Shown here one piece after another: positions 20,368 through 45,614 of a DNA stretch of 64,000 nt (the first letter of the stretch is position 1; each line of letters starts with the position of its first letter). A model generated the notes under the pieces. The model worked only from the letters and a program-made list of their open reading frames with translations. It did no database searches and was not told where the DNA came from. The stretch is taken from positions 11,295 to 75,294 of the forward strand of contig MGVE01000009.1 of assembly GCA_001800315.1 (NCBI GenBank). Reading direction: 5' to 3'. The DNA comes from Elusimicrobia bacterium RIFOXYA2_FULL_47_53 (GTDB taxonomy: Bacteria; Elusimicrobiota; Endomicrobiia; Endomicrobiales; XYA2-FULL-47-53). Position numbers and translations under genes: made by a program.

Positions 20368-20409
20368 TATTCTACCAAAGGAAAATGTGCGTGTCAACCG
20401 ACTTTTCAA

Positions 20410-20624
20410 TCCTCAGCTGCTTCACGGGGTTTGACGGTTAAGACCTCACCGGATATGAAAGTCACCCTGAACGAAGTGAAGGGTCTCGTTTTTCATCCAA
20501 CGACGAGATTGCTTCTCTCCCTGCGGGAGATCGCAAGGACGGCGTTTGTGGATTCCGGACAGAACACTTCCGGAATGACGGCCTGTCCGAGATGGTGAGG
20601 CGCATCCTTAACGGAGGATTAGGA
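20410..20624. repeat. Stem-loop module mosaic, locus B
   Basis: Modules at 20461-20507 (GTCACCCTGAACGAAGTGAAGGGTCTCG...ACGACGAG), 20505-20540 (GAGATTGCTTCTCTCCCTGCGGGAGATCGCAAGGAC) and 20547-20580 (TGTGGATTCCGGACAGAACACTTCCGGAATGACG). Confidence 0.9.
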
Positions 20625-21080: not shown

Positions 21081-21114
21081 TAGTGGCCTATCCTTATAAA
21101 ACGGGTTGCTAAAC

Positions 21115-21969: not shown

Positions 21970-21986
21970 GCGATTATGCTCCTGAA

Positions 21987-22817: not shown

Positions 22818-22912
22818 TATTTTTCCTCCTGCTGCCGTAACATGCAAAACAAAAACCAAACCGCTTTAACGGAATTTCTTAAGCGTTTTGGTTGTTGTCA
22901 TATGGTATTCAT

Positions 22913-27642: not shown

Positions 27643-27644
27643 AA

Positions 27645-29021: not shown

Positions 29022-29077
29022 ATTTTGAATCAATTAAAAAACATTTTCCGGACTGAGAATTTCGGTTAAACAGGTTC

Positions 29078-29245
29078 TTTAAACCCGAATTTTGCAATAG
29101 AAGCGAGTACCGAGGCGAGCGAGGCCGAGGCTTTTGTGACGGAAAAAGTGAAAGCGATGCAGGGACATCGGTTGAGCTTTTTGCGGATACAAAAGTCCGA
29201 CATCGCTCGACGAATACCGCTCTCTATTGCAAAATTCGGGTTAAA
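29078..29245. repeat. 168-bp long-palindrome intergenic element, copy 2
   Basis: TIRs TTTAAACCCGAATTTTGCAATAG (29078-29100) and CTATTGCAAAATTCGGGTTAAA (29224-29245). Aligns with 588..755. Confidence 0.8.
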
Positions 29246-29299
29246 CTGACTCTATTCTAATCAATAAATATTATATTATCAAGGCATTTCTAAATGTTT

Positions 29300-30643
29300 T
29301 TACGCTCTTTTAAGGTAAACGACTGTCTCTACATGAAAGGTCTGGGGGAACATGTCCACCGGGACAATTTTGACGACCTCGTACCTGCCGCCAAGACAGA
29401 TAGCTTTGAGGTCTCTGGCAAGGGTGGACGGATTGCATGAAACATATACTATCTTGGCGGGCGCCTCAGCCGTTATAAACTCAATAATTTTGGGGGTCAA
29501 TCCGCTCCTGGGCGGATCAACCACCAGCGAATCAAACTCCAGCTCTTTGTTCAGCTTTACCCAGTTTTCAACGCTCCCTTCAACAAACTCAATATTTTCA
29601 ATTTTATTTAAAAGGCTGTTCTCGCGGGCGTTTTTTACGGCATCGGGAATTTGTTCCACGCCGTAGACGCGGCCGGTGCAGGGAGCCAGGACAAGTCCGA
29701 TTGTCCCCGTTCCGCAATAGAGGTCCAGCACCCGGTCGGTTTTTGCCCACGGCGCGATGTCAACAACCGTTTCATATAATTTTTCGCAGGCGTATGTGTT
29801 TGTCTGAAAAAATGAGAAGGGCGAAATATTAAATCCGTATTCTCTGTTTTTTACTATCAGCTTTTCATGGATTACCGGAGCGCCGGAGAGAAGCGTCAGC
29901 TCATCGGCGTAAACCGCGTCTGAGGGCCTGGAATTAACGGTCCAATAAACGCTGGCCGCCTTGTTCCCGAGCTCTTTAACCAGTGGAGCGAAGAATTCCG
30001 CGGAAACGGCGCCATCTTTATTTGTGACGATATTTACAAGAACCTCGGAACTTCTTTTTGCTTTCCGCAAAACGAGATGGCGGTAGAAACCCGACTGCAG
30101 CTTCTTATCGTAAACCGGTTTGCCGGAATTTTGGGCGAAGTCCATAACCGTATCAAATACGGACATCGTGTCTTTGTCGGCTATAAAACAGGGCGGAACC
30201 GGCACATAGCGGTTGAATTCTTTTTTAACATGCAGGCCCGCGAGGAGCCGACCGTCCTGGGCGAAAAAGCTGAACTCCATTTTATTCCTGTAGCCGAGCT
30301 CTTCCGGGCTCGGCACCGTGGCGCCTATCAGGGGCTCGTACTCTTTGAGCTGTTCGCATACATAGCTCCGCTTTATTTCAAGCTGGTTGGCATACCCCGT
30401 ATGCTGAAACGAACAGCCTCCGCAGAACCCGAACGAGGGGCAGACCGGGGCCCGCCTTATGGGCGAAGCGCTTAAAACCGAAAGCAGGATTGCTTCCTTG
30501 AAAGACTTCTTACTTTTAATAATTTTTACTTCCGCGGTTTCTCCCGGCAGGGCGCCGTCAAAGAAAACAGCCGTGCCGTCTTCTCCGCGCGCGAGCGCTT
30601 TACCCGGGTAAACAATTTTTTCCACTTTAACGGTTGATTTCAT
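29300..30643 (-). CDS. rlmD: 23S rRNA (uracil-C5)-methyltransferase RlmD/RumA family
   Basis: 447 aa. TRAM-like N-terminus, Fe-S cysteines CPSFGFCGGCSFQH, SAM motif DLYCGTGTIG, catalytic VSCNP. Confidence 0.88.
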   Translation of the reverse strand: MKSTVKVEKIVYPGKALARGEDGTAVFFDGALPGETAEVKIIKSKKSFKEAILLSVLSASPIRRAPVCPSFGFCGGCSFQHTGYANQLEIKRSYVCEQLKEYEPLIGATVPSPEELGYRNKMEFSFFAQDGRLLAGLHVKKEFNRYVPVPPCFIADKDTMSVFDTVMDFAQNSGKPVYDKKLQSGFYRHLVLRKAKRSSEVLVNIVTNKDGAVSAEFFAPLVKELGNKAASVYWTVNSRPSDAVYADELTLLSGAPVIHEKLIVKNREYGFNISPFSFFQTNTYACEKLYETVVDIAPWAKTDRVLDLYCGTGTIGLVLAPCTGRVYGVEQIPDAVKNARENSLLNKIENIEFVEGSVENWVKLNKELEFDSLVVDPPRSGLTPKIIEFITAEAPAKIVYVSCNPSTLARDLKAICLGGRYEVVKIVPVDMFPQTFHVETVVYLKRA

Positions 30644-30659
30644 TTATTTTTCCGGAAGG

Positions 30660-32942
30660 TTACTCAAAATTGAAGTTGCCGCCCGCCAAAACCTTGAGGC
30701 AGGCGTCCACCACTAAGGTATCGTAATACGAACCCCTGCGGGCGGTAATTTCTTCTATGGCCTTTTCCATGCCGAGGTTAGCCCTGTAAGGCCTGTGAAA
30801 CGCCATGGCTTCAACGACATCCGCCACGCCGATAATACGCGCTTCAAGCAAAATATCGTCTCCGGAAAGGCCCAGCGGGTATCCGGTGCCGTCTATCCGT
30901 TCGTGATGCTGAAGGACTATCTGCGCGACAGGCCAGGTGAAGGGAATTGTTTTAAGAATGTCATAACCCACTTTGGGGTGAATTTTTATAAGGCCCATTT
31001 CCAGATCCATGAGCTTTCCTGGCTTATTTAAAATTTCGGCGGGCACATATATCTTGCCGATATCGTGGAGCGTCGCGGAGACGCGTATTCCGTCAATCTT
31101 ATCCTGGGGCAGTTTCATTTCCCTTGCTATCGCGCAGGCCAGAAGCATCACCCTGTGCTGATGCCCCGCCGTGTAGGAATCCCTTTTCTCGGCTGTGGAG
31201 GCGAGGGCGTTTACGGTTTCCTCAAGAGTAATCTGCAGTTTTTTAAAACTTTTCTCAAGCTCTTCCTCAGCTTTTTTGTGCTCGGTTATATCCTTCATGG
31301 TTTCTATTGAGGCTATAAGCTCGCCCCTGGTGTTGTAAACGGGCGCCGCGTCAAAAACGATATACCTTTCCCTGCCGCCGAGATTTTTGAACCACTCCTC
31401 GCTATGAAGCCCCTCGGCCAGCACATCCGATCTTTCATAGCTCATATGGTAGCCGTCGGCGTCGCCGCTTTTTCCGTCAATGATAAGGTCCGCCAGCAGC
31501 GGCCTCTTCTGCGGATAAAATGCCTTCCAGTGCAGGTCGGTATTTACCATGCCGTGGTCGCCGGAACCGGTAAGTTTTTCGCAGGCCTTGTTCCATATTA
31601 TTACTTTATGGTTCGCGTCCAGCACGAAGGCCGGAGTAGTGGAGCTCTGGATAAGTTTCGCGGAGAACTCCTTCTGTTCCAGGATGTCCTCTTCGGATTT
31701 TACGCGCTCGGTCATATCCACCATCGTTGTTCTGATACCCACGACCTCGCCTTTTATGTCGCGGTCAAGGGCGTCGTCTATGGAAACATATATTTTTGTG
31801 CCGTCTTTCTTAATGTAAACCCTGTTTTCCGACTTGCCGAACTGCCTGCCGGTGAGCTTCATCTGGAACCGCTCCCTGGCTTTTTCGCGCTGTTCAGGGA
31901 GAATAAAATCAAAAATATGTTTTCCCACCATCTCTTCGGGTTTATAGCCCAGCAATTTGCTCTCGGTCTGATTAACCCTGGTGATAACACCGTTTGAGTC
32001 AAGCGTATGGTAGGCGATAGGAGCGTTATCCCACAATTCTTTTAATCGTTCCTCGCTCTCCAGCAGAGCCCTGGATGTTGAATTCCGCTCAGTTATGTCT
32101 ATCAGCGAAACAAGGCTTCTTTTCGTGCCGGGTATCATGGTAACCGTAAGAAAAGTGTCGCGGACCGCTCCGTTTTTTGCCACAAAATGAGTTTCGTAAT
32201 TCCTCGGAGCGCTGCCAGGGTCCGTCCTCCTGGCCGCGTGGAAGCCCTTCATTTTTTCCAGATCGTCTTTGTGTATTATAGCGGTCCAGCTGATTTTACC
32301 TTCTATCTCGTTTTTCGTGTACCCGGAAAACTTCTCAAACTCGGCGTTTATAAGCGAGATTGTCGTGTCTTCTTCCACTATGGCCATCGCCGTTCCGGTA
32401 CTCTCAAAAAACGCCCTGTATTTCGCTTCGGAATCCTTTATGGTTTTCTCGGCGAGTTTTTGAAAAGTTATGTCTTCTCCGGAACTCAGGGTGCCGGCCG
32501 GCTGTCCGTTTTTGTCCTTGAGCAGGGAGACATACCAGGCGATATTCTTGCGCTCTCCGTTTTTACACAGCACGGGAAACTCAACATACTCGTTCGGCTT
32601 AAGGTCGCCGGAAATTATCATACGGAAAACCGACCTCGCCTCGGGCCTGACATCTTCCGGTATAAATGTTTCAAACCAGTTTTTGCCCAGGATTTCTTTT
32701 TCGCCGAGCCCTAATATTTCACTGCCTTTGCGGTTAATAAGGCTGACCGCCTCGTTTTTATCTATGGCAAGCAGAATCACGCTCGCGACATCAAGGTATC
32801 TCTGCGTTCTGTCTCTTTCCTGGCGCAGTTCTTCCTCAACGCGCTCGTGCCTGCCCTCAAGCTCTTCAAGCTCGGCAACGCGGGCCTTAAGCCGTTTGAT
32901 CTCTTCCTGCTGTTTGTCCTTTGCGGGTTTTTCGTTTTTCAT
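30660..32942 (-). CDS. Multi-PAS sensor with C-terminal HD-GYP phosphodiesterase
   Basis: 760 aa. N-terminal coiled coil, several PAS/PAC-like repeats, then TLHDIGK and QHHERIDGTGYPLG. Confidence 0.88.
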   Translation of the reverse strand: MKNEKPAKDKQQEEIKRLKARVAELEELEGRHERVEEELRQERDRTQRYLDVASVILLAIDKNEAVSLINRKGSEILGLGEKEILGKNWFETFIPEDVRPEARSVFRMIISGDLKPNEYVEFPVLCKNGERKNIAWYVSLLKDKNGQPAGTLSSGEDITFQKLAEKTIKDSEAKYRAFFESTGTAMAIVEEDTTISLINAEFEKFSGYTKNEIEGKISWTAIIHKDDLEKMKGFHAARRTDPGSAPRNYETHFVAKNGAVRDTFLTVTMIPGTKRSLVSLIDITERNSTSRALLESEERLKELWDNAPIAYHTLDSNGVITRVNQTESKLLGYKPEEMVGKHIFDFILPEQREKARERFQMKLTGRQFGKSENRVYIKKDGTKIYVSIDDALDRDIKGEVVGIRTTMVDMTERVKSEEDILEQKEFSAKLIQSSTTPAFVLDANHKVIIWNKACEKLTGSGDHGMVNTDLHWKAFYPQKRPLLADLIIDGKSGDADGYHMSYERSDVLAEGLHSEEWFKNLGGRERYIVFDAAPVYNTRGELIASIETMKDITEHKKAEEELEKSFKKLQITLEETVNALASTAEKRDSYTAGHQHRVMLLACAIAREMKLPQDKIDGIRVSATLHDIGKIYVPAEILNKPGKLMDLEMGLIKIHPKVGYDILKTIPFTWPVAQIVLQHHERIDGTGYPLGLSGDDILLEARIIGVADVVEAMAFHRPYRANLGMEKAIEEITARRGSYYDTLVVDACLKVLAGGNFNFE

Positions 32943-33140
32943 GTTTTTGTTCCGTCACTGATTATACGAAAATAATCTCATAACCTCAAGCCGCGCGCTA
33001 TGAATCAGCGGGATGTCCCACCTAAGCACTGTTTAATAAAAAACTGCATAACAGCAAGAATTATTTAAATGGCCGCCAAAATCATATAAACAGAACTGCT
33101 CTAATGCAATTTCCAGTAAATATGCCTTATTATTCAAGCC

Positions 33141-35858
33141 CTATTTTATTATAGCGATTTTCCCTATTTTCTTCTGGGCGCGGTTGTCCGGGTTGACTAT
33201 ATAATAAATATATACACCGGAGGCGACCTTCTCCCCACTATTATTTTGTGCGTTCCAGACTACAAGGCCGTCGCCGTCAGCTTCGCTGAATTCCGCGACA
33301 AGTTCGCCGGCGATATTGAATATATTTATATCGGCTTTTGCGGTTAGGTCCTTAAATACTATTCCGGCGCCATATGAGGTCCTGTCAAATTCTCCCCCGC
33401 TGCCAGGCTTGTAAGGGTTCGGAAAGACCTTAACATTATCCAGATCGGAGGAAGGCGCAATTACGCTTACAAGAGCGAACATTGAAAAATGGTTTATCTG
33501 CACCGAAACAGTCTTTGCGGCTTTGTCCAACGCGTATTCGGGTGATACTTGTACCCATTCCTGGCTTGCTTCATCAAAATTTAATATCCTTAAACCCTCT
33601 GCGCGCACGGGTGGTGCGGTATTGTCTATAATCTCATTATTGTCTGTGTCAGGATAGGCAAGCGTAAGCGTCATAGGTTTGTTGAATACAGAGACAGTTG
33701 AGCCGCCGATGTCGTAGTACTTCAGGTCAACGATGGAATCTTCCATCAAAATCTTATTCTTCAGCTTTAACTTATCAGCGCCAACTACAAGCTTTGCTCT
33801 CATTGCGGGTGCCGCGCTGTTTTTGGCATTTGCGTCAATTATTATATAGCCGTCGCAGGGAACCGCCCCTTCCGGAAGCAATACCTTAACCTCGCCAAAT
33901 GAAAGGTTGTCGGCTTTCTGTTCCTGCTGGCCTGATGTATTCGCGTGAATGAGCGTTATACCTGCAGGCAGCGGCTGGGTCCCGGCAGTTGCATATACAT
34001 TGCCGGTATCAATCCCGCTGATATTATAGGCGCAAATTGAATACTGATAAGTCGTGGCAAGCGATAACCCCGAATTACAATAAGTGTTAACATCCTGTTC
34101 TAAATCTGCCACAGCTGACCAAGTTGAGCCATCCATAGTTCGCTTTATCTTATAACCAGCAGCCGCACTTTTATCCCAGCTTAAAACAACACAGTGCCTG
34201 CCGTCAGTTGAGGTTTTGAAATTCGCAGGCGCTTGAGCCAGCGTAACAGCTTCCATCTGCGCTGCTGTTCCCTGTCCGTAATCGTTGTAAGGCTTAATAT
34301 ATCGCTGGTATTTTGTGTTTGGCGTAAGGCCGGACTCAAGCCAGGAAGTAGTGGCCTTATCCAGCTCCTGAAGCAGTGTATTGTCAGCTTTTGAGAATAT
34401 GCGGTATCCGCTAACCACGGCGGCATCGGTACTGTTCCATACCCAGGTTACGCTTGCGTCAGTCGCAAGCACAGCAGAAGCGCCGGATATCTCAGGAAAT
34501 GGTATGGGCGAAGTTACATCAAGCGATGCAGATGTGTTTGATGGCAGGTAATAGTAGCCGTCGCCGGCATATTCTACGGAAATATTGAATATATTCTGGT
34601 CAAGGTGTATCTCGGGATAAACTGTTGCTGTGCCGCTGCTGTTTGTTATGGCGGTATAGGATGTGTTGTTTATGGTAAATACTATTACCTGGTTGGCAAG
34701 TTCAGCTGAATCAAGCTTGGTAAGCGTTGCCTTAAATATCGCGGTTTCATGCTGCGGTACGGTAGTATCACCGGAATAGACAAGTTGTGTCTGGTTTGGC
34801 ACTACAGATACAATAGAGTTGGTTCTCGTTTCTTCCGGTACGCTTGGAAAATATACGGTTGCGTAATTTGTAATAGACGCTCCTGAAGCCATGCTCCCCT
34901 TTGCCGAAACAGTAATATCAAATTTTCCGCCTTGCCTTGAGCCGACCTCGCCTTCGTTATCCATATATACCGTTAAAAGCCGGGTATCGTCATCGTACTC
35001 ATACTCAAAAGTCGCGGCAGTTTCGGAACTTGTAAGGTAGTTTATGCGTTTGCAGTTGGAAACGATAACAGAAGAATCATCAATGTCCGTATCCAAAATA
35101 TCCGCAACATACACGCCATAGGCGATGCCTTCCCCTTCGTTTTCAAATTCCACGGTATAGGTGAGCGTCTGACCTGCAGAAATGCTGCCGTCAGGGCCGT
35201 ACATTATGTTAGGGTCGTGGGCAACACCAATAATACCAAGTATTTTTTTCCATATTTCGTCTTTCCCGTCACATTCATCTTTATTTTTATCTCTATTACT
35301 AAATATCTTTTCAAGATCCACTTCTTCACCATTATGGGTTACATGTATATCCAAATGAGAACCATCGCCATGTTCCGAGTACACACTTCCCGTATTTCCC
35401 ATCTCTGCAATTTGTGCGCCGCCAACAACCTCACTATCCCTCGATGGCAAGATACTATTATATTTTAAATGCCTGTATGATGATTTCCAGCCTCCGCCAT
35501 GATTAATATCAATATAATTCCCTTGCGCACGTTTTTTTGCATCATTTACTCCAGCATAGTTCGGATTAGTATACACGGTAGATTTATCCTCATCATTATC
35601 TAAATCATTTACAACCTCTTCCACAATACCATCTCCAAGAGAATATACTGGATCAGTAATAATACCATCAATATCCGTTGACCCATGTATTTTATTCTCA
35701 TGATTTACCCTTGGTTCATTAAAGCCACTTGTTATTTGATGATTAGAACCCCTATCTGTAGGCCAAAACACTTCAAAATCAGGCTGTGGAATATTCCCAG
35801 CAAAAAGAATTGAAGCTGGAATAATCATTAGAACAAAAAGCACTATTTTGTTTTTCAT
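33141..35858 (-). CDS. Secreted M23 peptidase with CARDB/DUF11-like, Ig-like and two FN3 domains and a T9SS-type (FlgD-Ig-like) C-terminal domain
   Basis: 905 aa. Signal peptide; M23 motifs HGSTDID (HxxxD) and SHLDIHV (HxH); FN3-like WVWNS...GYRIF and LSWDKS...GYKIKR; C-terminus VFPNPYKPG...INIFNIAGELV...ASGVYIYYIV...GKIAIIK. Confidence 0.8.
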   Translation of the reverse strand: MKNKIVLFVLMIIPASILFAGNIPQPDFEVFWPTDRGSNHQITSGFNEPRVNHENKIHGSTDIDGIITDPVYSLGDGIVEEVVNDLDNDEDKSTVYTNPNYAGVNDAKKRAQGNYIDINHGGGWKSSYRHLKYNSILPSRDSEVVGGAQIAEMGNTGSVYSEHGDGSHLDIHVTHNGEEVDLEKIFSNRDKNKDECDGKDEIWKKILGIIGVAHDPNIMYGPDGSISAGQTLTYTVEFENEGEGIAYGVYVADILDTDIDDSSVIVSNCKRINYLTSSETAATFEYEYDDDTRLLTVYMDNEGEVGSRQGGKFDITVSAKGSMASGASITNYATVYFPSVPEETRTNSIVSVVPNQTQLVYSGDTTVPQHETAIFKATLTKLDSAELANQVIVFTINNTSYTAITNSSGTATVYPEIHLDQNIFNISVEYAGDGYYYLPSNTSASLDVTSPIPFPEISGASAVLATDASVTWVWNSTDAAVVSGYRIFSKADNTLLQELDKATTSWLESGLTPNTKYQRYIKPYNDYGQGTAAQMEAVTLAQAPANFKTSTDGRHCVVLSWDKSAAAGYKIKRTMDGSTWSAVADLEQDVNTYCNSGLSLATTYQYSICAYNISGIDTGNVYATAGTQPLPAGITLIHANTSGQQEQKADNLSFGEVKVLLPEGAVPCDGYIIIDANAKNSAAPAMRAKLVVGADKLKLKNKILMEDSIVDLKYYDIGGSTVSVFNKPMTLTLAYPDTDNNEIIDNTAPPVRAEGLRILNFDEASQEWVQVSPEYALDKAAKTVSVQINHFSMFALVSVIAPSSDLDNVKVFPNPYKPGSGGEFDRTSYGAGIVFKDLTAKADINIFNIAGELVAEFSEADGDGLVVWNAQNNSGEKVASGVYIYYIVNPDNRAQKKIGKIAIIK

Positions 35859-35874
35859 AAGACCTATTTACTTA

Positions 35875-37179
35875 TTAATAAGCTCCATTAATATAAAACA
35901 ATTTACTCCTATTTTGATTAAAAGCGGTCTCGTAAGTAATAATTGAAGAACCATTGTCTGATGATTGAAAAACGCTACACAATCCAGCAAGATTTACCGA
36001 CCATATTTCCTCTCCACTTATATCGTACATTTCAATAACACTGCCTACGCTCTTAGATTTTACTGGATACTTTAACACAACAACATTTTTATCTTCTAAT
36101 GTTAAGAGATAATTGCCATTTATTTCATACCTAAAATCATTGTTATCAATTTTAGTCAAAATGCTTTCATTTTTATTTAGAATCAATATCTTCTCATTTA
36201 CCCCTCTTTTATCAATATTTTTATTTGCTTCAAATGATGTAAGATAATGTTTTCCCAGTCTATAACGAGTTTCATCAATCGGAGAAATAAAAGTTTCTCC
36301 TTTAAAATATGTCTTCTTTTTTTTCGATGTTTTTTCAACCAATATTCTCTTTTTGCCAATTTCGTATACTCTAAACACCCATTCCCGAGAATGCAGTTTT
36401 GGGGAGTCAAATATTGAACTGTCTATACTTGACAGATAGTTACCATTTACTTCGGAAATAATTCCAGCAACACTCATCACAACGCTTTTATCAATTGCAT
36501 ACAAATCACTATCTTTGATTATATATCGCCCATCTTTTGACATCCATGCCTGACTCTTAACATCTTTCCTATTTATTTTCCATAAAATATCACCTTTTGA
36601 ATTTAATAAATAATAATCGTCTTTCGGATCGCCAGATTCAGCAAGAACAGGGCTAATAAATATGTGTTTTCCATCCGGCGAAATAGCAGGATTACCCATT
36701 AAATCCAAAGACCACAACAAATCACCTTTTTCAGTAAAGAATAGTACTTTCCTTACATATCTTTCATCAAATATTTTCATTGACTTTTCTTCAACACTTC
36801 CAACCATTCTTGATTCTTGGACAATCTCACTCACTGTACATGCAACATATGCACCGTTTTTACTTATGACTGCATTGCTAATTACATAAACACCAGTCGA
36901 GTTTTTGTACTCAAATTCCCAAAGAACATTGCGATGACTATCCATTGCAATCAATTTACTACCGAAATAAGTGTTTTTCGTGCCACTATAATACATATCA
37001 TCTTTTATTGAATTAAATTGAGGTTCTATTGACACAAGGATCTTTGTTCCATCGCCACTAATTCCCATGGCATTAATTCGCGAAGGAAATTCTTTTTCCC
37101 ACAATATCCTCTCCGCAGAAAAAGCGCAAAAAGGCATACCAAAAATAAACACAAACAGTAAAAACGATTTCATTTTCAT
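35875..37179 (-). CDS. Secreted beta-propeller-like repeat protein (PQQ/BamB- or TolB-like repeats), uncharacterised
   Basis: 434 aa. Signal peptide ...FCAFSA and repeated S.DG..I / GD.LW motifs (ISGDGTKILVS, ISKNGAYVAC, ISPDGKHIFIS, MSKDGRYIIK). SD AGAGGAG. Very AT-rich. Confidence 0.55.
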   Translation of the reverse strand: MKMKSFLLFVFIFGMPFCAFSAERILWEKEFPSRINAMGISGDGTKILVSIEPQFNSIKDDMYYSGTKNTYFGSKLIAMDSHRNVLWEFEYKNSTGVYVISNAVISKNGAYVACTVSEIVQESRMVGSVEEKSMKIFDERYVRKVLFFTEKGDLLWSLDLMGNPAISPDGKHIFISPVLAESGDPKDDYYLLNSKGDILWKINRKDVKSQAWMSKDGRYIIKDSDLYAIDKSVVMSVAGIISEVNGNYLSSIDSSIFDSPKLHSREWVFRVYEIGKKRILVEKTSKKKKTYFKGETFISPIDETRYRLGKHYLTSFEANKNIDKRGVNEKILILNKNESILTKIDNNDFRYEINGNYLLTLEDKNVVVLKYPVKSKSVGSVIEMYDISGEEIWSVNLAGLCSVFQSSDNGSSIITYETAFNQNRSKLFYINGAY

Positions 37180-37191
37180 TAAAAACTCCTC

Positions 37192-40100
37192 TTAATCATG
37201 ATCTCCATCTGGATTATATGTTGGGAAAATGCCATCAGCAGCATCATTATCAAGCAGATATAAATCTGCGCTCAAAGGAGTTCCTTGAGGCAGACCCCAT
37301 AAGATTTTAAATTTTCCATTCAATTTTTTAACAGACTTTGCATCTATTAAGGATATATTCCACCGAACTACAGGACTAGAATAATAGTTATCATTTTCAT
37401 CCCAACAAGACAGATCATATTTTTTATGCTCACCTGAAGCTGCAATATAGGTACATTTTACTGGTGGGAATAGAACTATACTTTTGTTTGTTGCGGCAGC
37501 CAATCCATTATTCTTCACCTCAATAGTATAGGTAACTGTCTGTCCGGGGCTTGCGGCGCCGGGTCCAAACAGTTCAACTTCTATATCAGGTTGAGGCGAT
37601 TCGCCTATATCCAGTTTAGTCACGACAAACCACATGGATTTGGTTGTGCTGTTTTTCAATAATCCTGAAGCTGTGCCGAACATGGGGTTGTCCAGCATCA
37701 GCTTTAGCGTTATCTCTTCAGCGCTTATGGCATCGGCAAAGCCCCAACCCATGCCCGATAATCCGCCCCACTGGTAAGACAAAATAGTGAAGCCGTCCTT
37801 ATCGTATATATTGCCGGTATCGTTTATATAAACATTGGTCAGGATAGTTTTAATATTGCCCGTATATCCTCCGGCAAGCGTGCCCTGCGCCGATGTCTGC
37901 AGGAAGTTTAGTCCTGTATTTGCATATTCCTGCTGGCTATCATAGGTTAAGGAACCAACGAGGCGCAGCCTCCCGCTTGAAATGCTTCCGCCGCCCGTTG
38001 TATTAACACGGAACGACCATGTGGCAGCCAGTGTGTCGTAGGTGTTGCTGTTTGCTAAAGATTCCAAGAGGCAGCCGTCAAACGAACCGTCCACAACGCC
38101 TTCCATAACGCCTTTCAAATAGAGTTTTCTTTCAGTTGTGTTCAGATACGCCATACCATAGATTTGGCCCTGATAATTTACCCCGTCTAAAGTCCCGCTC
38201 CACGCGCCTTTATAGAAGCCCTTGTCCTTGTAGCCGCCGGTATTTATGGTAACTATAGCTATTGTGGATATATTTATACTCCCTGATAAAGTGCCACTTG
38301 CGGTAAGCGAGCCTTTTGCGGTTTTCACCAATATGGTTTCGGTAAGCTGTGATGTTGAAACATGTCCTACGGCTGAATTAGATATGCCGCTTGGCGAATC
38401 GGCTGAAACTGTAGGTACCATCTTCGTGCCAGCTTCGGCCTCAGGGTTGCCGCCGGTGCCTGCGGTAGTATTGATTGAACCTGAATAGGTTGAATTGTTA
38501 TAAAACACAGCTATCCTGCCGCCTGCACCACCTCCGGCAGAACTACCGGTATCGCCGTTGCCGCCGTTCGCGTTTATTACCCCGCTTCCAGCAAACTGAT
38601 CCGCAATAATATATATGCTTCCACCGCTTCCTCCACCACCGCCATTAGAACCTGAATGATAACCGCTAAAACCATTGGCGTTTATTGCGCCATCGTTTGT
38701 AAGAGTACCGTCAACTGTAAGTTTTACCTTGCCACCACCGGCGCCACCTAAAGCAAGACCGTTGCCGACACCGCCGCCTGAACCGAGATAGCTCGGACTC
38801 ATCATACTTCCGTAAGAGAGGCCGCCTGCTCCGCTTGATGTGCCTCCGTTTCCGCCGTAACCGCCGCCCGCACCGTCTATACCGGCTGTACCGCCACCTG
38901 CGCCTTCGCCGTTAGAATATGTAACACCGTCGCCGCCATGATATCCCATGCCGTTCACATTTATCTGGCCGCCGGAATTTATTGTAAGGTTACCGTTGAC
39001 TGTAATATCAAATTCCGGGTCTGCTGCTGAGTGGCTCACAAGACCGCCGGAATATACAGTCATATTATTCACCGTTAGCCCCGAGTTAACATAAAGCACC
39101 CCTGATGAGTTTATGCTTGCCGCGCCGGTTATATTGAACTGACCTGCGCCTATATATATAGTCGCACCGTTTGAAAGGTTCAGGTCTGCTATGGATGAAG
39201 TGCCGGAACTGTAAAATATGCCGTTGTTGTCAAGGTTAAGCGCCGACGCGGTAAGCGTTGAAGTGGATTGGAGCACGCATTTATTTTCAGCGATAATATT
39301 GTCAAATTGGCCGCAAAGATAAGTGATGCCGCCTATTTTGTTGTTATTATTTACAAACACATCGCCGTAGGATTGTGATGTGCTTTTTTTGTATATCGTA
39401 CCCGCGCCGCCGCGGTTGGCATCGTTATTACCGCTGTATGCTGAAATAGCATAAGCTGAATTGTCCGTCGTGTAATACAGCGCTATCCTGCCGCCAGCTC
39501 CGCCGCCATTGTAAGTATCTCCACCAGGCCCGCCGTTAGCTTTGATACTACCATCCCCGCTTAGAGTGTTAGCTAAAATATATACGCAGCCGCCAGAACC
39601 GCCACCGCCATAACCGGGGAAGTTTGCTCCGCCGTTTGCACCGTTTGCGGTAATTATTCCACTATTAAATATTTCGCCAGTTGCAACTATCTTTATTCTG
39701 CCGCCGCCTGCTCCCCCGCCGGCATTACCGCTTCCAACACCGCCACCGGATCCAAAATCAGTTGGATTTGCAATACTTCCATAAGATATTCCACCATAGC
39801 CGTAGGCTTCCCATGAGCGGTAAATACCTATACCTCCGACACCTCCATAACCTGCCCCACCGGCACAAGTTGCTGCAGTTCCACCGCCAGAGCCTTCACC
39901 ATTAATTATTGAAGACCCGTTGCCGCCCCGATACCCTGCGCCGTCAGCACTTATTTTACCAGTTGCACTTATTGTTATTGAGGAGCATATGAGTTCAAGC
40001 CAGCCGCTTGTGCCAGAACCGATATAAGAACGGACATTTAAGGTGCCGTCAATCTGTACAAAGCTCGCATAGGTATGGGTTCCGCTTGAAGTGTAGGTTT

Positions 40101-40302
40101 CGCCGACAGGTATGATAAGATAGTTTGTGGTATCAGTAATTACAGAGAAGCCGCTTTGCGGAAAAATCACCTGAAAGAATAGAACCGTTGAAAATAAAAA
40201 AAATCCGTAAAGCTTTTTAGCGTGCTTTACAGGATAAAACAATGCTTTGAATTTCTTATGGAAACTTGCCAACGCCTTGCACCCCACGCTCTTATCCCCC
40301 AC
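37192..40302 (-). CDS. Large secreted glycine-rich beta-helix-like protein with an internal ~190-aa duplication and a C-terminal CARDB/DUF11-like domain
   Basis: 1036 aa. Hydrophobic signal-like segment KKLYGFFLFSTVLFFQVIFPQSG. Two modules with GGAGGGRI(K/A), GGGGSGG and ANGG.G motifs. C-terminal PGQTVTYTIEVKNNG. The start codon is uncertain (GTG at 40302, no early ATG). Confidence 0.65.
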   Translation of the reverse strand: MGDKSVGCKALASFHKKFKALFYPVKHAKKLYGFFLFSTVLFFQVIFPQSGFSVITDTTNYLIIPVGETYTSSGTHTYASFVQIDGTLNVRSYIGSGTSGWLELICSSITISATGKISADGAGYRGGNGSSIINGEGSGGGTAATCAGGAGYGGVGGIGIYRSWEAYGYGGISYGSIANPTDFGSGGGVGSGNAGGGAGGGRIKIVATGEIFNSGIITANGANGGANFPGYGGGGSGGCVYILANTLSGDGSIKANGGPGGDTYNGGGAGGRIALYYTTDNSAYAISAYSGNNDANRGGAGTIYKKSTSQSYGDVFVNNNNKIGGITYLCGQFDNIIAENKCVLQSTSTLTASALNLDNNGIFYSSGTSSIADLNLSNGATIYIGAGQFNITGAASINSSGVLYVNSGLTVNNMTVYSGGLVSHSAADPEFDITVNGNLTINSGGQINVNGMGYHGGDGVTYSNGEGAGGGTAGIDGAGGGYGGNGGTSSGAGGLSYGSMMSPSYLGSGGGVGNGLALGGAGGGKVKLTVDGTLTNDGAINANGFSGYHSGSNGGGGGSGGSIYIIADQFAGSGVINANGGNGDTGSSAGGGAGGRIAVFYNNSTYSGSINTTAGTGGNPEAEAGTKMVPTVSADSPSGISNSAVGHVSTSQLTETILVKTAKGSLTASGTLSGSINISTIAIVTINTGGYKDKGFYKGAWSGTLDGVNYQGQIYGMAYLNTTERKLYLKGVMEGVVDGSFDGCLLESLANSNTYDTLAATWSFRVNTTGGGSISSGRLRLVGSLTYDSQQEYANTGLNFLQTSAQGTLAGGYTGNIKTILTNVYINDTGNIYDKDGFTILSYQWGGLSGMGWGFADAISAEEITLKLMLDNPMFGTASGLLKNSTTKSMWFVVTKLDIGESPQPDIEVELFGPGAASPGQTVTYTIEVKNNGLAAATNKSIVLFPPVKCTYIAASGEHKKYDLSCWDENDNYYSSPVVRWNISLIDAKSVKKLNGKFKILWGLPQGTPLSADLYLLDNDAADGIFPTYNPDGDHD

Positions 40303-40320
40303 ACATTTTAGACACTTAGC

Positions 40321-40349
40321 TATATATAATAATCGCGTTTCATTGTCAA
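40321..40349 (-). promoter_or_regulatory. Sigma-70-type promoter for the three-gene secreted-protein operon
   Basis: The minus strand reads TTGACA (40349-40344), N17, TATATA (40326-40321). Confidence 0.65.
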
Positions 40350-40409
40350 ATATTTGTGCGCCCCCTAACCCTCAGACAGCACCTGAGGCGTGACGGCGAA
40401 GATTTTACC

Positions 40410-40761
40410 GTACCTGTAAAGTCACACTGAACGAAGTGAAGGGTCTCGTTTTTTATCCAACGACGAGATTCTTCTCTCCCTGCGGGAGATCAGAACAACG
40501 ACAACGACACAACGAGATTGCTTCGTTCCTCGCAATGACATCCTTTTGTGGATTCCGGACAGAACAATTCCGGAATGACAGCGTGTGGCGCTTTTGTGTC
40601 GTCATACCAGCGGACAGACTGTGTGGCAATGTCATCCTGCATGACAACAACTCAAAGCCCTCGTTAATGGCAGTTATGACACAGTCTGGGAAGCTGGTAT
40701 CCAGTGGTTTTTCTGGATCCCAGACTGGACATTTCCGGGATGACAGACTGGCTTTGTGATA
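40410..40761. repeat. Stem-loop module mosaic, locus D
   Basis: Modules at 40421-40467, 40465-40500 and 40547-40580. The arms ATACCAGC (40604-40611) and GCTGGTAT (40693-40700) enclose a 75-nt palindromic unit at 40614-40688. Confidence 0.9.
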
Positions 40762-41628
40762 TTAAGCCTTTAAAGGGCTTTTTTGCTTTCTCCACTTTTT
40801 AAGTTTTGAAAGATTTTCAAGATCCGCGGTTTCGGAATCCTTCGGCGTTTCAAGAATGCCCGCCTCGGCAATATCCTTGACGCGTTCAATAAAATACTTG
40901 AAACCTTCCGCCCCTATATAACCTTTCGCTATGTGTTCGTGCCTGTCTCTCCGCGAGGAAAGCGGAGCCATTGAATCGTTGAAATGAACGCACTTTAAAT
41001 ATTTAAGCCCTATCAGGGAATCAAATTCCGAGAGAGCCTTGTCTATGCCTTTCGCGCAGGATATATCGTAACCGGCGGCGAAAGCGTGCGCGGTGTCAAA
41101 ACAGACCCCGATTCGTTTCTTATTTTTTATGCCGTCAATCATTGCGGCAATCTCTTGAAAGGCGCTCCCCATTCTTCTGCCGCCTCCGGCCGTGTTTTCC
41201 AAAAGCAGGGAGACATCGCCGGCTGACTCTTCAAAAGCCTTATTGACGGCATCCACGACTTTTTTGATGCCGGTTTCGCGGGTCGCGGTTTCGGAATACG
41301 CGCCGGGATGAATTACAAGGTAATCGGCACGCAAAATATCGGAAACGGTAAGGTCGTCAATAAGCGCCTTTAAGGACATTGCGTAGAGTTTTTGCTTTGA
41401 GGTCGCAATATTTGGCAGGTAAGGAGTATGCACGACAAGCGGAGCTATCCCGCTCCGGTTCCGGGAAGCCTTAAATTCCCTGATATCTCCCTCGGGCGGC
41501 ATTGTCATGCGCCACATGCGAGGGCTTCTGGTAAATATCTGCATGGCTTCGCATTCAATATTTTTGGCTTCCTCAAGCGCGCCCGGCAGGCCTTTCCTTA
41601 ACGAACAGTGAACTCCGAATCTGATCAT
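40762..41628 (-). CDS. nfo: Endonuclease IV (AP endonuclease family 2)
   Basis: 288 aa TIM-barrel with VVHTPYLPN, LVIHPG, LLENTAG, CFDTAH and HFNDS. Confidence 0.9.
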   Translation of the reverse strand: MIRFGVHCSLRKGLPGALEEAKNIECEAMQIFTRSPRMWRMTMPPEGDIREFKASRNRSGIAPLVVHTPYLPNIATSKQKLYAMSLKALIDDLTVSDILRADYLVIHPGAYSETATRETGIKKVVDAVNKAFEESAGDVSLLLENTAGGGRRMGSAFQEIAAMIDGIKNKKRIGVCFDTAHAFAAGYDISCAKGIDKALSEFDSLIGLKYLKCVHFNDSMAPLSSRRDRHEHIAKGYIGAEGFKYFIERVKDIAEAGILETPKDSETADLENLSKLKKWRKQKSPLKA

Positions 41629-41852
41629 TTCGTATTATCCTTAAGCGGTTTCAGCATGTTTTCCAGTCCGCCCTCTTTTAATTCAAGTATTTCTTTCATC
41701 AGCGCGCCCAGCCGGCCCTTGGGAAACCCTTTTCTCGCAAACCAGATAAAATAATGCTCAGGCACATCAATAAGCCGCCAGTTGGAATATTTTCCAAAAG
41801 GCATACGCGCGTTGGCGAGATCAATGAGGTGCTTTTTGTCCATATCAACCAT
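41625..41852 (-). CDS. DUF3820 family protein
   Basis: 75 aa. MPFGKYSNWRLIDVPEHYFIWFARKGFPKGRLG matches the DUF3820 pattern. ATGA overlap with nfo. Confidence 0.7.
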   Translation of the reverse strand: MVDMDKKHLIDLANARMPFGKYSNWRLIDVPEHYFIWFARKGFPKGRLGALMKEILELKEGGLENMLKPLKDNTK

Positions 41853-42267
41853 ATTGCCGTATATGATACTCTTTTATGAGCATAAGATAAAGGCTGGCAA
41901 CTGACGGGCATGAAGGTTGTGAGGCAGGATATACCGGGGGAGGCGTAAAAGCTGGCGGACTGCTTTATACTATCGTAATAGGGTTAACCGTGTGAGAATA
42001 AAATATAATCTGGAGTAAGGAGTGTTTATAATTTGGGCGAGTTTTCTAAAACATTAAAAATATCGGGATTATTTAATGCCTCGGTCAAATCTTTTTTTGT
42101 CATAAAACCATTGTTTTTAAAGTAAGAAAGTTGTTTGTATTTTTGTTGGCTACTATGGTTCGACTTATCAATCACTCGCCTTAGCTTCTTTCCCCATAGG
42201 TTCCTATTATGTCTTTGTTTGGCGATTAGCCAATAATGAGCCCTTTGTTAGCCGTATTAGCCGATTA

Positions 42268-43629
42268 TTAGCCCTTTAGCTTGTATATAGTTCCCCGACC
42301 GGTTACCCCTACCCTGACAAGAACTTGCTTGCTAACCATATCTTTTAGGTCAATAGTAGCCATAGGTTTTGAAATATCCGTCAATTCTTGATATTGCTTA
42401 TTCGTTATCTTTCCTTTTTCTTTAACATAGGCGACAGCTTTTATCTGTCTTTCGTTAAGGCCAAGCTTTTGCAAGTTCTCTTCAGTATGGGTGTCCTTTG
42501 AGAATGTTATCTGAAAGCCTTTTTGGCGTTCTTTTATGGCCGGGATAGGAACTTCTGCATCGTTGCATAGATGAACCATTTTACCTATACCGCTCCCCCA
42601 CTGTTCAATGAATTCAATGTCAAAGAAGACCTTTGCAATTCCCTTGTTTCGTGTATCGGAATCATGCGTCTTAAATAAATCTTCTACGGAAACATTAGGT
42701 GCTAATCCTCCGGGATTCCATATCTCAAGCCGGTCATCGTGTATTCGTACGCTTATATTGGAAGAAACGAGATAATCTCTGTGACATACGGCATTGATAA
42801 GAGCTTCCCTAATAGCGTCAAGCGGATAATCCCAAACATTTTTACGCCGCGGCTCGCCAGTCATTACAAATTTAACGCTTATGTTCTTTTTGATAAAATC
42901 CATCGCCAAATCTACCTGGTCAATTAATGTTCCCTCAACCATGTCATCATCAATTACAAGCGACTCATTCTTGAATCTTCCGCAATGGATTACTGCCTGT
43001 TGTACATACCTCATCGGACGCTTGCCAAAAAGAAGCAGGGCGGCCCAGGCAGGAACACCATCTTTGATAAACTCAAGTTTTTTCAATATCTCTAAGACAG
43101 TTTCATCTTTGGGGATTTTTCGGCGGCCGGTTTCATTGGCAGTATCTCTATATGCAAACACTTTTTTTTCATCTATGTCTTTTAAGGAATATCCTGCGGC
43201 TTGAGTTAAATCCCAGCTCATATCAAGCGACTTATAGTGCATATCGGCGATTTCTTGCGGGGTCATCAAGCGGTTGCTGTTCTTAACCCTTCTAAAGCAC
43301 TTACCCTTAATAGCTACGGGCTTAATGGGGCATTCTTTAATAGTGATAACTGCGATGATTTTATTGTCAACGGTAAGTTGCTCTACATCGGGGATTACGC
43401 GGGGATTGCTTGCTTGGGTGATCTGGTTTATCCAATCGTTTATGGTTTCTTTGCCAATCTGAATTCCTTTTATTGTGCCATTGTCTGAGACACCTACTAT
43501 AATGGTACCGCCTTTGGAATTAGAAAACGCCCCGGCAGTTTCTACGGCCTCTCTGTCGAAGCTTTCTTTGAAGTCCAATGTCTCGGACTCACCCTTGCTA
43601 ATGATTACTTTAAGTTCTTCCGGTGTCAT
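42268..43629 (-). CDS. AlbA_2 (Schlafen-like) + HATPase_c_4 + wHTH protein (often annotated RecG-like putative DNA-binding protein)
   Basis: 453 aa. GESETLDFKESF...AFSNSKGGTIIVGV (AlbA_2), REALINAVCHRDY...RLEIWNPGGL (HATPase_c_4-like), and a C-terminal wHTH. The sampled line gives ~38% GC. Confidence 0.75.
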   Translation of the reverse strand: MTPEELKVIISKGESETLDFKESFDREAVETAGAFSNSKGGTIIVGVSDNGTIKGIQIGKETINDWINQITQASNPRVIPDVEQLTVDNKIIAVITIKECPIKPVAIKGKCFRRVKNSNRLMTPQEIADMHYKSLDMSWDLTQAAGYSLKDIDEKKVFAYRDTANETGRRKIPKDETVLEILKKLEFIKDGVPAWAALLLFGKRPMRYVQQAVIHCGRFKNESLVIDDDMVEGTLIDQVDLAMDFIKKNISVKFVMTGEPRRKNVWDYPLDAIREALINAVCHRDYLVSSNISVRIHDDRLEIWNPGGLAPNVSVEDLFKTHDSDTRNKGIAKVFFDIEFIEQWGSGIGKMVHLCNDAEVPIPAIKERQKGFQITFSKDTHTEENLQKLGLNERQIKAVAYVKEKGKITNKQYQELTDISKPMATIDLKDMVSKQVLVRVGVTGRGTIYKLKG

Positions 43630-43781: not shown

Positions 43782-45614
43782 ATGAACACAAGAATACTGT
43801 TTCTGGCCTATGTTTTACTATCCCATTTTGCCGCGACTGCGTGTTTCGCGTCGGAAGGCACGGCTGACGAAAAGGCGTTGCCGGCAACAAAGAGCTACGC
43901 CGGCGCGGGTATTCCGTTTAATATAGCCCATCCGAAAGAAGGCCAGCAGCTGCCATACCTGAAATCTTCCTTTGTTTTCGGTTCCGCCGATCCGCGCGGC
44001 AAACTCTACATTAACGGCGCGGAGACTCCAATCTTTGAAAGCGGCGGATTTCTTGCCATGGTTCCATATTCAACCGGAACTTTCTCAATAATCGCCGAAC
44101 TGAAAATATTTGAGAGCTCCAAAACAATTACAAGAACTATATTTGTGGCTCCCCCCGCGGAAACACCTCCCGCCTCGCCCTTAACCCTTATTTCGTCTAA
44201 ACCGGAAATGGACTTATCTCTCAGGACGGGAGAAACATTTATTATTGAATGCAGGGGCAGCCCCGGGGCTAATGCATTGGCCAAAATTAAAGGCTCCAAA
44301 GGAGTAATTAATTTAAGCGAAACGGCACCAGGCTCCGGGATTTACCGTTTTCTTTACAGGATTAAGCCGGGCGATAATTTCAAGGACTCCGAGATCTCCG
44401 TAACGCTTGAGAATAAAAAGGGCAGAAAATCCATTGTCGCCTCCGGAAAAATATCTAAACTTGAACCGGATTCGTTCTGGCAGGCGGAGGTTTCAGCCGA
44501 TAACGCTGTTGTCCGTTCCGGTTACGCTTTAACGCCTGCGGATAAGGCGGGATATGTTTTATTTCCTCCCCAGGGAACAAAGTTTCTTGTCACGGGCAGG
44601 CGCGGCCAGGAACTGGAAGTGCGTTTAAATCAGGCCCGCAGCGGCTGGATCGGAGAAACCGAGGTCAGGCCCGCCGGCCATAGCACCCCCAGGATAACCA
44701 GCGGCAATTTAATTGTCAGCTACCAAAAACCGAATTCGCTGCTGCGCTTATATCTTGGCGCGAAGCCGCCCTTTGAAGTTACGGCTTCTCCCGCGGAGGA
44801 CAAGATTGACATAAGGTTTTTCGGAGTGGTTTCAAACACGGACTGGATAAATTACGAGTCCACTTCTTCCATAATAAGTTTTGTTGAGTGGTTTCAGGAT
44901 GACACGGAGACATTCCGAGTGACACTGCACTTAAAAGAGACTAACTGGTGGGGCTACGACGCGAGGTTTGAAAACGGAAGTTTTGTTTTTGAGATCCGCC
45001 GGCCCGAAAAAATCCCGGCCGCTGATTCAACCCTAAAAGGCATTATGGTAGCCATTGACGCGGGACACGGGCCCGAAACAGGGGCCGTGGGCCCAACGGG
45101 CCTTGAAGAAAAAAATGTAAACCTTAGTATCGCGCTTTCGCTTGAAAAAATGCTTTTAGCACAGGGGGCGGAAGTAACTATGATTCGCAGAGGGAATGAA
45201 CCGGTAAGCCTTTACGATAGAATAAGAAAAGCCCAGAACATCAAAGCCGATATGCTGATAAGCATCCACAACAACGCGCTTCCCGAGGGGCAGAACCCGC
45301 TGGTAAAAAACGGGTTCGGCGCGTATTATTACTACCCGCAAAGTTTCGCGCTTGCCCAGGAGATTCATGATTCTCTGGCAAAAGCATTTTCTTCTTCATA
45401 TTCAAAGTACCCGCTGAGAGACGACGGACTTTACTACGGCAACCTCGCTCTCGCCAGGGTTCCGCAGATGCCTGCGGTGCTTGTTGAGTGCGCTTACATA
45501 ATCGTGCCGCGCGAGGAATCGCTGCTTAGAAACGCGGGATTTCAAAATGCCTGCGCGCAGGCTATAACTTCCGGTATAAAAAAGTTTGTCGCGGCTAAGA
45601 AAAAGCGGAAGTAA
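43782..45614 (+). CDS. N-acetylmuramoyl-L-alanine amidase (Amidase_3) with a long N-terminal domain
   Basis: 610 aa. Signal peptide and a C-terminal IMVAIDAGHGPETGAVGP...ADMLISIHNNA amidase_3 core. Confidence 0.88.
   Translation: MNTRILFLAYVLLSHFAATACFASEGTADEKALPATKSYAGAGIPFNIAHPKEGQQLPYLKSSFVFGSADPRGKLYINGAETPIFESGGFLAMVPYSTGTFSIIAELKIFESSKTITRTIFVAPPAETPPASPLTLISSKPEMDLSLRTGETFIIECRGSPGANALAKIKGSKGVINLSETAPGSGIYRFLYRIKPGDNFKDSEISVTLENKKGRKSIVASGKISKLEPDSFWQAEVSADNAVVRSGYALTPADKAGYVLFPPQGTKFLVTGRRGQELEVRLNQARSGWIGETEVRPAGHSTPRITSGNLIVSYQKPNSLLRLYLGAKPPFEVTASPAEDKIDIRFFGVVSNTDWINYESTSSIISFVEWFQDDTETFRVTLHLKETNWWGYDARFENGSFVFEIRRPEKIPAADSTLKGIMVAIDAGHGPETGAVGPTGLEEKNVNLSIALSLEKMLLAQGAEVTMIRRGNEPVSLYDRIRKAQNIKADMLISIHNNALPEGQNPLVKNGFGAYYYYPQSFALAQEIHDSLAKAFSSSYSKYPLRDDGLYYGNLALARVPQMPAVLVECAYIIVPREESLLRNAGFQNACAQAITSGIKKFVAAKKKRK

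Follow-up and report, generated by a model that had tools for sequence, protein, structure and literature searches.

Three adjacent genes in a groundwater member of the Elusimicrobia may belong to an undescribed, horizontally shuffled three-gene family, in which an exported polymorphic peptidoglycan hydrolase is accompanied by a periplasmic beta-propeller inhibitor specific to its enzymatic head; we give this reading about an equal chance of being right or wrong. The genes lie on the minus strand of a 64,000-nucleotide stretch (hereafter the window) of contig MGVE01000009.1, from the metagenome-assembled genome (MAG) Elusimicrobia bacterium RIFOXYA2_FULL_47_53. They are numbered here in the direction of transcription: gene 1 (37192–40302) encodes a secreted beta-helix protein, gene 2 (35875–37179) a secreted beta-propeller, and gene 3 (33141–35858) a multidomain peptidoglycan hydrolase, recognized by Pfam and NCBIfam models. 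All three products are annotated as hypothetical in their NCBI records, and identical proteins occur in several assemblies of groundwater Elusimicrobia MAGs (RIFOXY... bins). The comparative evidence that parts of such loci are exchanged as modules is solid, and that for the functions of these parts is indirect.

The open reading frame (ORF) list bears out the coordinates and lengths with which a preliminary description of this region had presented the three genes, as well as the gaps of 12 and 16 nt between them. All three proteins begin with a signal-like segment. Gene 2 encodes 434 amino acids (aa) and has an AGGAG Shine-Dalgarno motif 7 nt before its ATG. Gene 3 encodes 905 aa arranged, from the N-terminus, as a signal peptide, an M23 head, DUF7619, an Ig-like domain, two FN3 domains, a beta-sandwich region, and a C-terminal sorting-type domain, a layout shared by the homologues P0123, P0124, and P0128. 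A Sec signal peptide is present (MKNKIVLFVLMIIPASILFAG, read by eye from the translation), followed by the Peptidase_M23 head (aa 58–181; 35316–35687; PF01551, 40.6 bits against a cutoff of 28.7), which aligns to the solved structures ShyA and 2gu1. A D-P-N junction (aa 215–217, motif AHDPNIMYGP; 35208–35216) lies between this variable head and the constant stalk. The latter begins with DUF7619, a CnaA-like isopeptide-type domain (aa 223–338; 34845–35192; PF24595, 37.3 against 27), and continues with the Ig-like (aa 365–449) and FN3 (approximately aa 461–625) domains, which together span 33984–34766. The tail appears to be a C-terminal domain of the kind that serves as a sorting signal in the type IX secretion system, T9SS (aa 800–905; 33144–33461). 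The preliminary description had listed M23, CARDB-like, Ig-like, two FN3, and FlgD-Ig/T9SS-type domains: its M23 and two FN3 assignments stand (fn3, E = 1.1e-9 over two stretches), the Ig-like one is weak (Big_3_5, E = 0.0038, below its cutoff), and the sorting domain passes the curated CHU_C model (28.1 against 27) and narrowly fails TIGR04183 (21.9 against 23) and FlgD_ig (21.3 against 27).

The preliminary description had also suggested looking for co-occurrence of the three genes across genomes, and the triad does recur. At least nine independent loci, in MAGs that are unclassified or belong to Elusimicrobiota or Caldisericota, have a beta-helix protein with a characteristic C-terminal module, a secreted beta-propeller, and an M23 protein with a DUF7619 stalk and T9SS-type tail, in that order. 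The series of gene-1 C-module, gene-2 family member, and M23 with DUF7619 is found in the window and in L003, L004, L005, L006, L007 (a Caldiserica MAG), L011, and L017; L018 holds the first two triad genes only. The C-module, an all-beta segment of gene 1 (aa 648–900; 37603–38361), is the mark of the first gene in every related locus; its BLAST matches to the opening genes in L001–L007, L011, and L014–L018 have E values between 1e-28 and 1e-141. Related loci were reached by three independent routes, namely gene-3 homologues, gene-2 homologues, and pattern scans. In the locus scan based on gene 2, an alignment of 21 sequences failed, as no stretch was conserved enough, and one of 9 sequences led to 2 and 5 loci. 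One locus, from Methanothermococcus (L008), was set aside because its propeller match was generic only.

Among gene-2 homologues with a visible downstream neighbor (the window's own excluded), the next gene downstream encodes an M23 protein in 10 of 14. A single 1493-aa chain, P0139 (L014, 8001–12482), combines a beta-helix, the gene-1 C-module, M23, and DUF7619, and gene 1 and gene 3 are therefore likely to be functionally tied. Together these comparisons support the earlier proposal that the three genes form a functional unit, and the lack of co-occurrence that had been named as a refutation does not hold.

Constancy of the stalk and tail goes along with exchange of the enzyme in front of them. 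The DUF7619 stalk and tail carry M23, Amidase_6, or NlpC/P60-like heads, the last of these a weak assignment (E = 6e-4 to 2e-3, below the Pfam threshold), and the middle gene differs accordingly. Next to M23 heads (the window, L003–L007, L011, and L017) it encodes a gene-2 family propeller. The two Amidase_6 loci have an FG-GAP propeller plus a HEAT-repeat protein (L015) or a 363-aa protein without a Pfam match (L016), and the NlpC/P60-like loci L001 and L002 have a propeller of an NHL-like family. In all M23 loci the middle gene is matched by a hidden Markov model (HMM) of the gene-2 family, even where the copy has diverged, as in L003 (E = 6e-15); the model has no match in the amidase or NlpC/P60-like loci. 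Paralogous loci within one MAG give the sharpest comparison: between L003 and L004 the stalk and tail are 82% identical, the heads 42%, and the propellers 26%. Divergence of head and partner beside so similar a stalk is typical of conflict systems.

The propeller and head also multiply and persist as units of their own. Tandem propeller-head pairs are present in L011 (three) and L005 (two), and wherever sequence upstream of an array is visible, the array opens with the gene-1 C-module, whole or in part. Upstream heads in these arrays end about 35 aa into DUF7619, at a conserved ...FENEGEGIA, and retain their own start codon and signal peptide; in L005 the short head is followed by a fragment matching gene 1 residues 951–1027. 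Conversely, propeller genes without an M23 gene after them are found in L012, where unrelated genes follow, in L013, which has a gene-1 C-terminal fragment and a propeller, and in L018. Two gene-2 homologues of L018 flank a 50-aa ORF (3494–3646; AEDIFPVYDPEGAHD) in which a signal peptide is joined to the gene-1 tail motif described below, apparently a trace left by the deletion of a head.

Base composition delimits the exchangeable part in the window itself. A maximum-likelihood fit with two breakpoints places a block of 0.335 GC at 35231–37531, between flanks of 0.468 and 0.490; GC at third codon positions (GC3) is 0.21, 0.26, and 0.25 inside the block and 0.45 and 0.47 outside. The preliminary description had called the operon as a whole AT-rich, which holds for this block only. 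We read it as a cassette imported into this genome from a low-GC donor, because the low-GC and low-GC3 segment comprises exactly the gene-1 tail (aa 924–1036), gene 2, and the M23 head of gene 3 (aa 1–210). The same pattern is found in the higher-GC loci L002 and L016, and all other M23/propeller loci lie in DNA of 34–40% GC. Protein identity changes at the same place: window gene 1 is 62% identical to its L001 counterpart up to residue 924 and 37% beyond it, and the gene-1 proteins of L015 and L003 share 81–89% over the body and 33% over the last 110 residues.

Both breakpoints coincide with CnaA-like sequences that are homologous to each other (GQTVTYTIEVKNNG in gene 1, GQTLTYTVEFENEG in gene 3) and share the motif GQT(V/L)TYT(I/V)E, the first at aa 924 inside the terminal DUF11-like domain of gene 1 and the second at aa 210 of gene 3, five residues before D-P-N. 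Recombination at these two motifs could swap a unit of gene-1 tail, partner, and head between genomes. As judged from sequence, such homology would offer a simple mechanism both for cassette replacement and for the unequal crossing-over that would generate arrays. The junction motif is found in 12 of 12 heads, with D215 and P216 invariant, and DUF7619 is 56–60% identical between loci, D253 and N331 being invariant in the alignment of gene-3 homologues. DUF7619 has been described as an isopeptide domain (PMC12617251). From the residue positions given there, rather than from a structure, the isopeptide-forming Lys is probably that of the DPNAK motif, which is present in 8 of the 12 heads and replaced by Met in the window copy (Met219; 35202–35204) and in 3 of the 11 others.

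Gene 2 folds as an all-beta propeller in the AlphaFold2 (AF2) model (predicted TM-score, pTM, 0.80) and carries its N-terminal signal-like segment, so that its earlier designation as a secreted beta-propeller-like protein holds; its signal peptide has no lipobox Cys, and none is conserved across the family. Profile matches, and Foldseek searches of the model against the PDB, give only generic WD40/YncE propellers. A word-indexed protein search had returned no relatives and made gene 2 look like an orphan, a view overturned by an exhaustive HMMER search with 91 matches, of which some 20 are secreted proteins matched over their full length (380–460 aa). The family is small and uncharacterized, pairs with M23 heads, and, like the gene-1 C-module, has no Pfam model.

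A head-specific binding protein is the simplest account of gene 2, because its family changes with the head, is duplicated with each head, and survives alone. We therefore favor, for the comparative reasons given, a role as a head-specific and immunity-like inhibitor, which gene 2 probably has. Sec would bring the product of gene 3 into the periplasm, from where the protein's C-terminal domain would carry it over the outer membrane, or anchor it there, with the head cutting the peptidoglycan of other cells. A folded wall hydrolase in the periplasm would be a hazard to the producer. The gene 2 product, as a soluble periplasmic propeller specific to M23 heads, would bind and block the head during its passage, and would also guard against the same enzyme arriving from kin, an immunity-like form of self-protection. 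The product of gene 1 would act with that of gene 3 outside the cell, probably as a target-binding or scaffold subunit. There is a precedent for protection of this kind in Bdellovibrio, where the periplasmic ankyrin protein Bd3460 shields the cell against peptidoglycan endopeptidases that the predator itself secretes (PMC4686830). The preliminary description had seen adhesin-like partners beside the enzyme, and the propeller behaves instead as a head-specific partner, probably an inhibitor; nothing in the data supports a self-remodelling surface layer, which had been offered as another option.

Several points weigh against this inhibitor reading. Immunity genes usually follow their toxin gene, and gene 2 precedes the head. 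Binding of gene 2 to the head is itself a prediction drawn from comparative evidence, about 12 loci were sampled, and the NlpC/P60-like class of heads is, as noted, weakly assigned. In the window copy the M23 enzyme may be weak or inactive, as an Asp takes the place of the third zinc-ligand His. For export, a search for T9SS components, which the preliminary description had proposed for the genome, covered the window and found none among the annotated genes of these 64 kb. To our knowledge, Elusimicrobia and Caldiserica lie outside the Fibrobacterota–Chlorobiota–Bacteroidota (FCB) group in which T9SS has been described. A Mantel test of propeller against head pairwise identities gave a weak correlation that was not significant (r = 0.23, p = 0.06), and no gene-2 homologue lies within 8 kb of the fusion protein P0139.

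The last two results are at home in a different account, in which gene 2 is a head-specific assembly factor, a chaperone, or a bridge joining the products of genes 1 and 3 in a surface complex that digests free or foreign peptidoglycan, for example in scavenging of necromass as opposed to killing. A bridge would be expected to be dispensable where gene-1 and gene-3 parts are covalently linked, as in P0139. Propellers are also common as scaffolds, gene 2 has generic matches only, and the tail motif of gene 1 tracks head type as well. Yet propeller genes persist without head or stalk in L012, L013, and L018, the arrays of L005 and L011 pair each propeller with a short, stalk-less head, which a bridge would hardly explain, and head and partner have diverged strongly beside a stalk that is 82% identical. 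On balance we consider a bridging or assembly role somewhat unlikely, and prefer inhibition by gene 2.

The catalytic head is altered in the window copy. The preliminary description had reported an intact M23 endopeptidase with both HxxxD and HxH. The first motif is present (H58-G-S-T-D62), and both of its residues are invariant in an alignment of eight proteins; in place of the second, gene 3 reads H168-L-D170-I-H172, so that HLD replaces the HLH(F/L)E found in 11 of 11 related heads. Given that the window copy is alone among the 12 heads in lacking HLH, and that Met219 occupies the isopeptide-position Lys of DUF7619, the locus might be a decayed or domesticated copy, its M23 catalysis lost through His170Asp and gene 3 retained as a wall-binding or adhesive surface protein. 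Against decay stand three full-length ORFs with signal segments and tail intact, the identical proteins in several assemblies, and the fact that Asp can ligate zinc and that H58, D62, H130, and H168 remain. We regard loss of function as improbable, more so than the bridging role.

Four of the five catalytic or ligand residues being kept, gene 3 also differs from the degenerate LytM amidase activators of EnvC/NlpD type, a housekeeping division role that the preliminary description had named as a finding that would refute its proposal and that would leave the neighboring genes unrelated. The single substituted zinc ligand would suit such an activator, as would an Amidase_3 gene 3.4 kb away (43782–45614). 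That gene, however, is encoded on the other strand, with two unrelated genes in between, and gene 3 has neither a coiled-coil nor a LysM match, bears a long stalk and a T9SS-type tail, and has a swappable head within a cassette of foreign composition. A division factor is thus very improbable here. A competitive or lytic apparatus fits the data better, because the heads are swappable, head and partner have diverged beside a constant stalk, arrays and head-less propellers occur, and the cassette is foreign.

Export by a T9SS-like route is suggested by the tail of gene 3. In addition to the curated models above, the C-terminus of PorZ matches gene 3 locally at residues 800–905 (E = 1.8e-15), and gene-3 homologues carry PF18962 (Por_Secre_tail). 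A literature search found no report of T9SS in Elusimicrobia.

Gene 1 is given in the ORF list as 1036 aa from a GTG. Translation more likely begins with the GTG at 40287, for a product of 1031 aa: a GGGGGA motif lies just before that codon, and this is the length called in other assemblies. The translation opens with the signal-like segment, and the AF2 model has a mean predicted local distance difference test (pLDDT) score of 82. Two glycine-rich modules and a DUF11-like end, all three anticipated by the preliminary description, are confirmed. Module 1 (aa 101–300; 39403–40002) has 26–42% Gly per 50-aa block and short beta-strand rungs in the model. Module 2 (aa 451–600; 38503–38952) has 30–46% Gly, with glycine columns nearly invariant over 24 homologues. 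Through these modules gene 1 has 261 homologues, the closest homologues of gene 1 itself being in L001 and L002. The terminal DUF11/CLIPPER-like domain of CnaA type (aa 904–1018; 37249–37593; TIGR01451, 27.6 against a cutoff of 24) is matched in 12 of 12 gene-1 family members and resembles the CLIPPER structure 9ifr (Foldseek, TMt 0.69). The last approximately 12 residues form an acidic His/Asp tail, FPTYNPDGDHD (37192–37230), whose motif follows head type: FPxY(D/N)PxGDHD in all M23 loci and FYxEME..EY in amidase loci. Either the head or the partner could serve as a docking site for this tail.

Searches with the C-module profile found nothing among PDB sequences, and Pfam gave the terminal DUF11 domain only. 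An outer-membrane beta-barrel of autotransporter type had been considered for aa 648–900 and was dropped, since the structural matches in Foldseek are soluble beta-sandwiches; for the gene-1 model these were the only kind of match (integrin leg, CBM3, CLIPPER), with no beta-helix match. Against viral structures the model gave no convincing tail-fibre match, a result that bears on the idea that the locus is a remnant of a phage tail-fibre and lysin module. A beta-helix protein does adjoin a wall hydrolase, a gene that precedes the gene-1 homologue in L002 (6963–7976) has weak matches to Phage tail collar (E = 1e-4) and the Gp10_C baseplate domain (E = 0.02), and BFVD returns weak matches to glycine-rich minor tail proteins. 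The BFVD TM-scores, however, stay under 0.2 across long alignments, neither the window locus nor the related loci have phage genes in their flanks, and Sec signals with a T9SS-type tail are features of cellular export. A phage origin is as doubtful as the division factor.

The combination had been put forward earlier as unlike any described system, and this holds: literature searches on T9SS in Elusimicrobia, on DUF7619, and on M23 with propeller immunity found no description of it. By analogy, its logic is that of polymorphic toxin/immunity systems, and its layout differs. A constant part is joined to a variable enzymatic domain at the conserved DPN junction, the family of the adjacent partner changes with that domain, and tandem and orphan cassettes are present together with signs of horizontal exchange in the foreign GC3.

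In pairs of the type VI secretion system (T6SS) such as Tse1/Tsi1 and Tae/Tai, a wall-degrading enzyme is encoded beside a small specific periplasmic protein; the pairs are diverse and horizontally exchanged, and orphan immunity genes occur. The loci described here likewise have a wall enzyme beside a specific partner, exchange, and partner genes without an enzyme, with inhibition as a prediction. Unlike the T6SS pairs, they have an N-terminal head on a long stalk, a T9SS-type C-terminal domain, and no T6SS; the partner is a beta-propeller of 380–460 aa encoded upstream, and a beta-helix gene is always present.

CdiA-CT/CdiI and Rhs systems offer a second parallel. There, a short motif divides constant and variable parts, displaced toxin/immunity modules stand in tandem, and homologous recombination exchanges them. 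The demarcating motif has its counterpart here in (R/H/K)DPN(A/I)(K/M)YGP, where a CnaA-like domain begins. In contrast, the other proposed arm for recombination is a homologous domain that closes another gene, gene 1, and the displaced heads still have a start codon and a signal peptide of their own. Lysostaphin and zoocin A are secreted M23 bacteriocins of Gram-positive bacteria, with self-protection by FemABX-like alteration of the cross-bridge. They share with gene 3 an exported M23 enzyme directed at the peptidoglycan of other cells and a linked self-protection gene, the last two as proposed here, and differ in that the protecting partner would be a binding protein and that a stalk, a T9SS-type tail, and a beta-helix partner are present.

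TANFOR polymorphic toxins of Bacteroidetes are T9SS-associated and likewise consist of constant and variable parts accompanied by a cognate immunity gene. In them the constant domain is N-terminal, a toxin such as the DNase BaCT forms the C-terminus, and immunity is encoded downstream (PMC7073777). The present arrangement is the reverse, with the enzyme N-terminal, the sorting domain C-terminal, and the partner upstream; in addition, the variable enzymes act on the cell wall and the hosts do not belong to Bacteroidetes. Like Bd3460, a periplasmic repeat protein encoded beside an exported peptidoglycan endopeptidase, gene 2 is proposed to shield the producer's wall. Bd3460 consists of ankyrin repeats and faces PBP4-type enzymes, as opposed to a propeller and M23 here, and is not described as part of a polymorphic, cassette-exchanging locus (PMC4686830). 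CLIPPER, DUF11, and DUF7619 isopeptide domains form the stalks of Gram-negative surface proteins and fibrillar adhesins (PMC12617251). Genes 3 and 1 carry such CnaA-like DUF7619 and DUF11 domains, but as a single domain rather than a tandem stalk; it marks the boundary of an exchangeable head, and its presumed isopeptide Lys is Met in the window copy.

The flanks of the three-gene locus consist of chromosomal housekeeping and cyclic di-GMP (c-di-GMP) signaling genes. A sigma-70-like sequence, TTGACA-17 nt-TATATA, read directly from the DNA 5' of gene 1 (40321–40349, minus strand), had been taken as the single promoter of the operon. The consensus-like match is there, and it remains a candidate only, because the promoter scanner does not list it (its own rule rejects the site, position 6 of the -10 hexamer being A) and promoter-like sites in the region are no more numerous than in shuffled sequence (16 against 18.8 ± 3.8). 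The 459-nt spacer 5' of gene 1 (40303–40761) contains a 38-nt direct repeat (40544–40581 and 40709–40746, 82% identical), several inverted repeats of 10–14 nt, and a plus-strand ORF of 107 aa (40436–40759), followed by a terminator-like hairpin on the same strand (40764–40780). A 27-nt motif of the spacer occurs once in the window, and Rfam gave no match across 32500–42300.

Other features of the window lie farther from the locus. The plus-strand Amidase_3 gene mentioned above encodes 610 aa, the amidase domain being confined to residues 423–601 after an N-terminal extension of about 420 aa that is unannotated. Genes for c-di-GMP signaling are unusually dense (15418–16494, 26275–32942, and 51707–53314), with GAF-HD_5, GGDEF, GAF-GGDEF, 4xPAS-HD-GYP, and PAS-GGDEF-HD_5 architectures; the 4xPAS-HD-GYP gene is directly downstream of gene 3. 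A T2SSE/MshEN secretion or pilus ATPase (16509–18338, minus strand) is followed by five ORFs without a Pfam match (18389–22859) and then by a FecR-domain protein (22913–24529), and the whole (16509–24529, minus strand) may be a pilus or type II secretion-like cluster. Further low-GC spots (0.39–0.41) at 42268–43629, 12511–13149, and 62695–63294 coincide with defense- or mobile-looking genes, namely Schlafen AlbA_2 with HATPase_c_4, DUF3800, and an AbiEii/DUF6036 nucleotidyltransferase.

Taken one step beyond the locus, these loci could stand for a novel class of interbacterial lysins, polymorphic and hosted by uncultured diderm phyla outside the FCB group. Their wall-hydrolase heads would be exchanged as cassettes, along with a dedicated immunity gene for a propeller or other repeat protein and the beta-helix partner's tail, by recombination at isopeptide motifs, and export would use a T9SS-like C-terminal signal in lineages not known to have a T9SS. 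We put this forward tentatively and lean slightly against it in so complete a form. If true, it would provide a testable gene set for antagonism or wall-scavenging in groundwater Elusimicrobiota and Caldisericota, and a new protein family of M23 inhibitors. Isopeptide-type stalk domains would then act as recombination arms for the exchange of enzyme heads, and the use of T9SS-type sorting domains outside phyla with known T9SS would be raised as a question. The M23, Amidase_6, and NlpC/P60-like heads would in that case also supply a varied set of lytic enzymes that come paired with inhibitors of their own.

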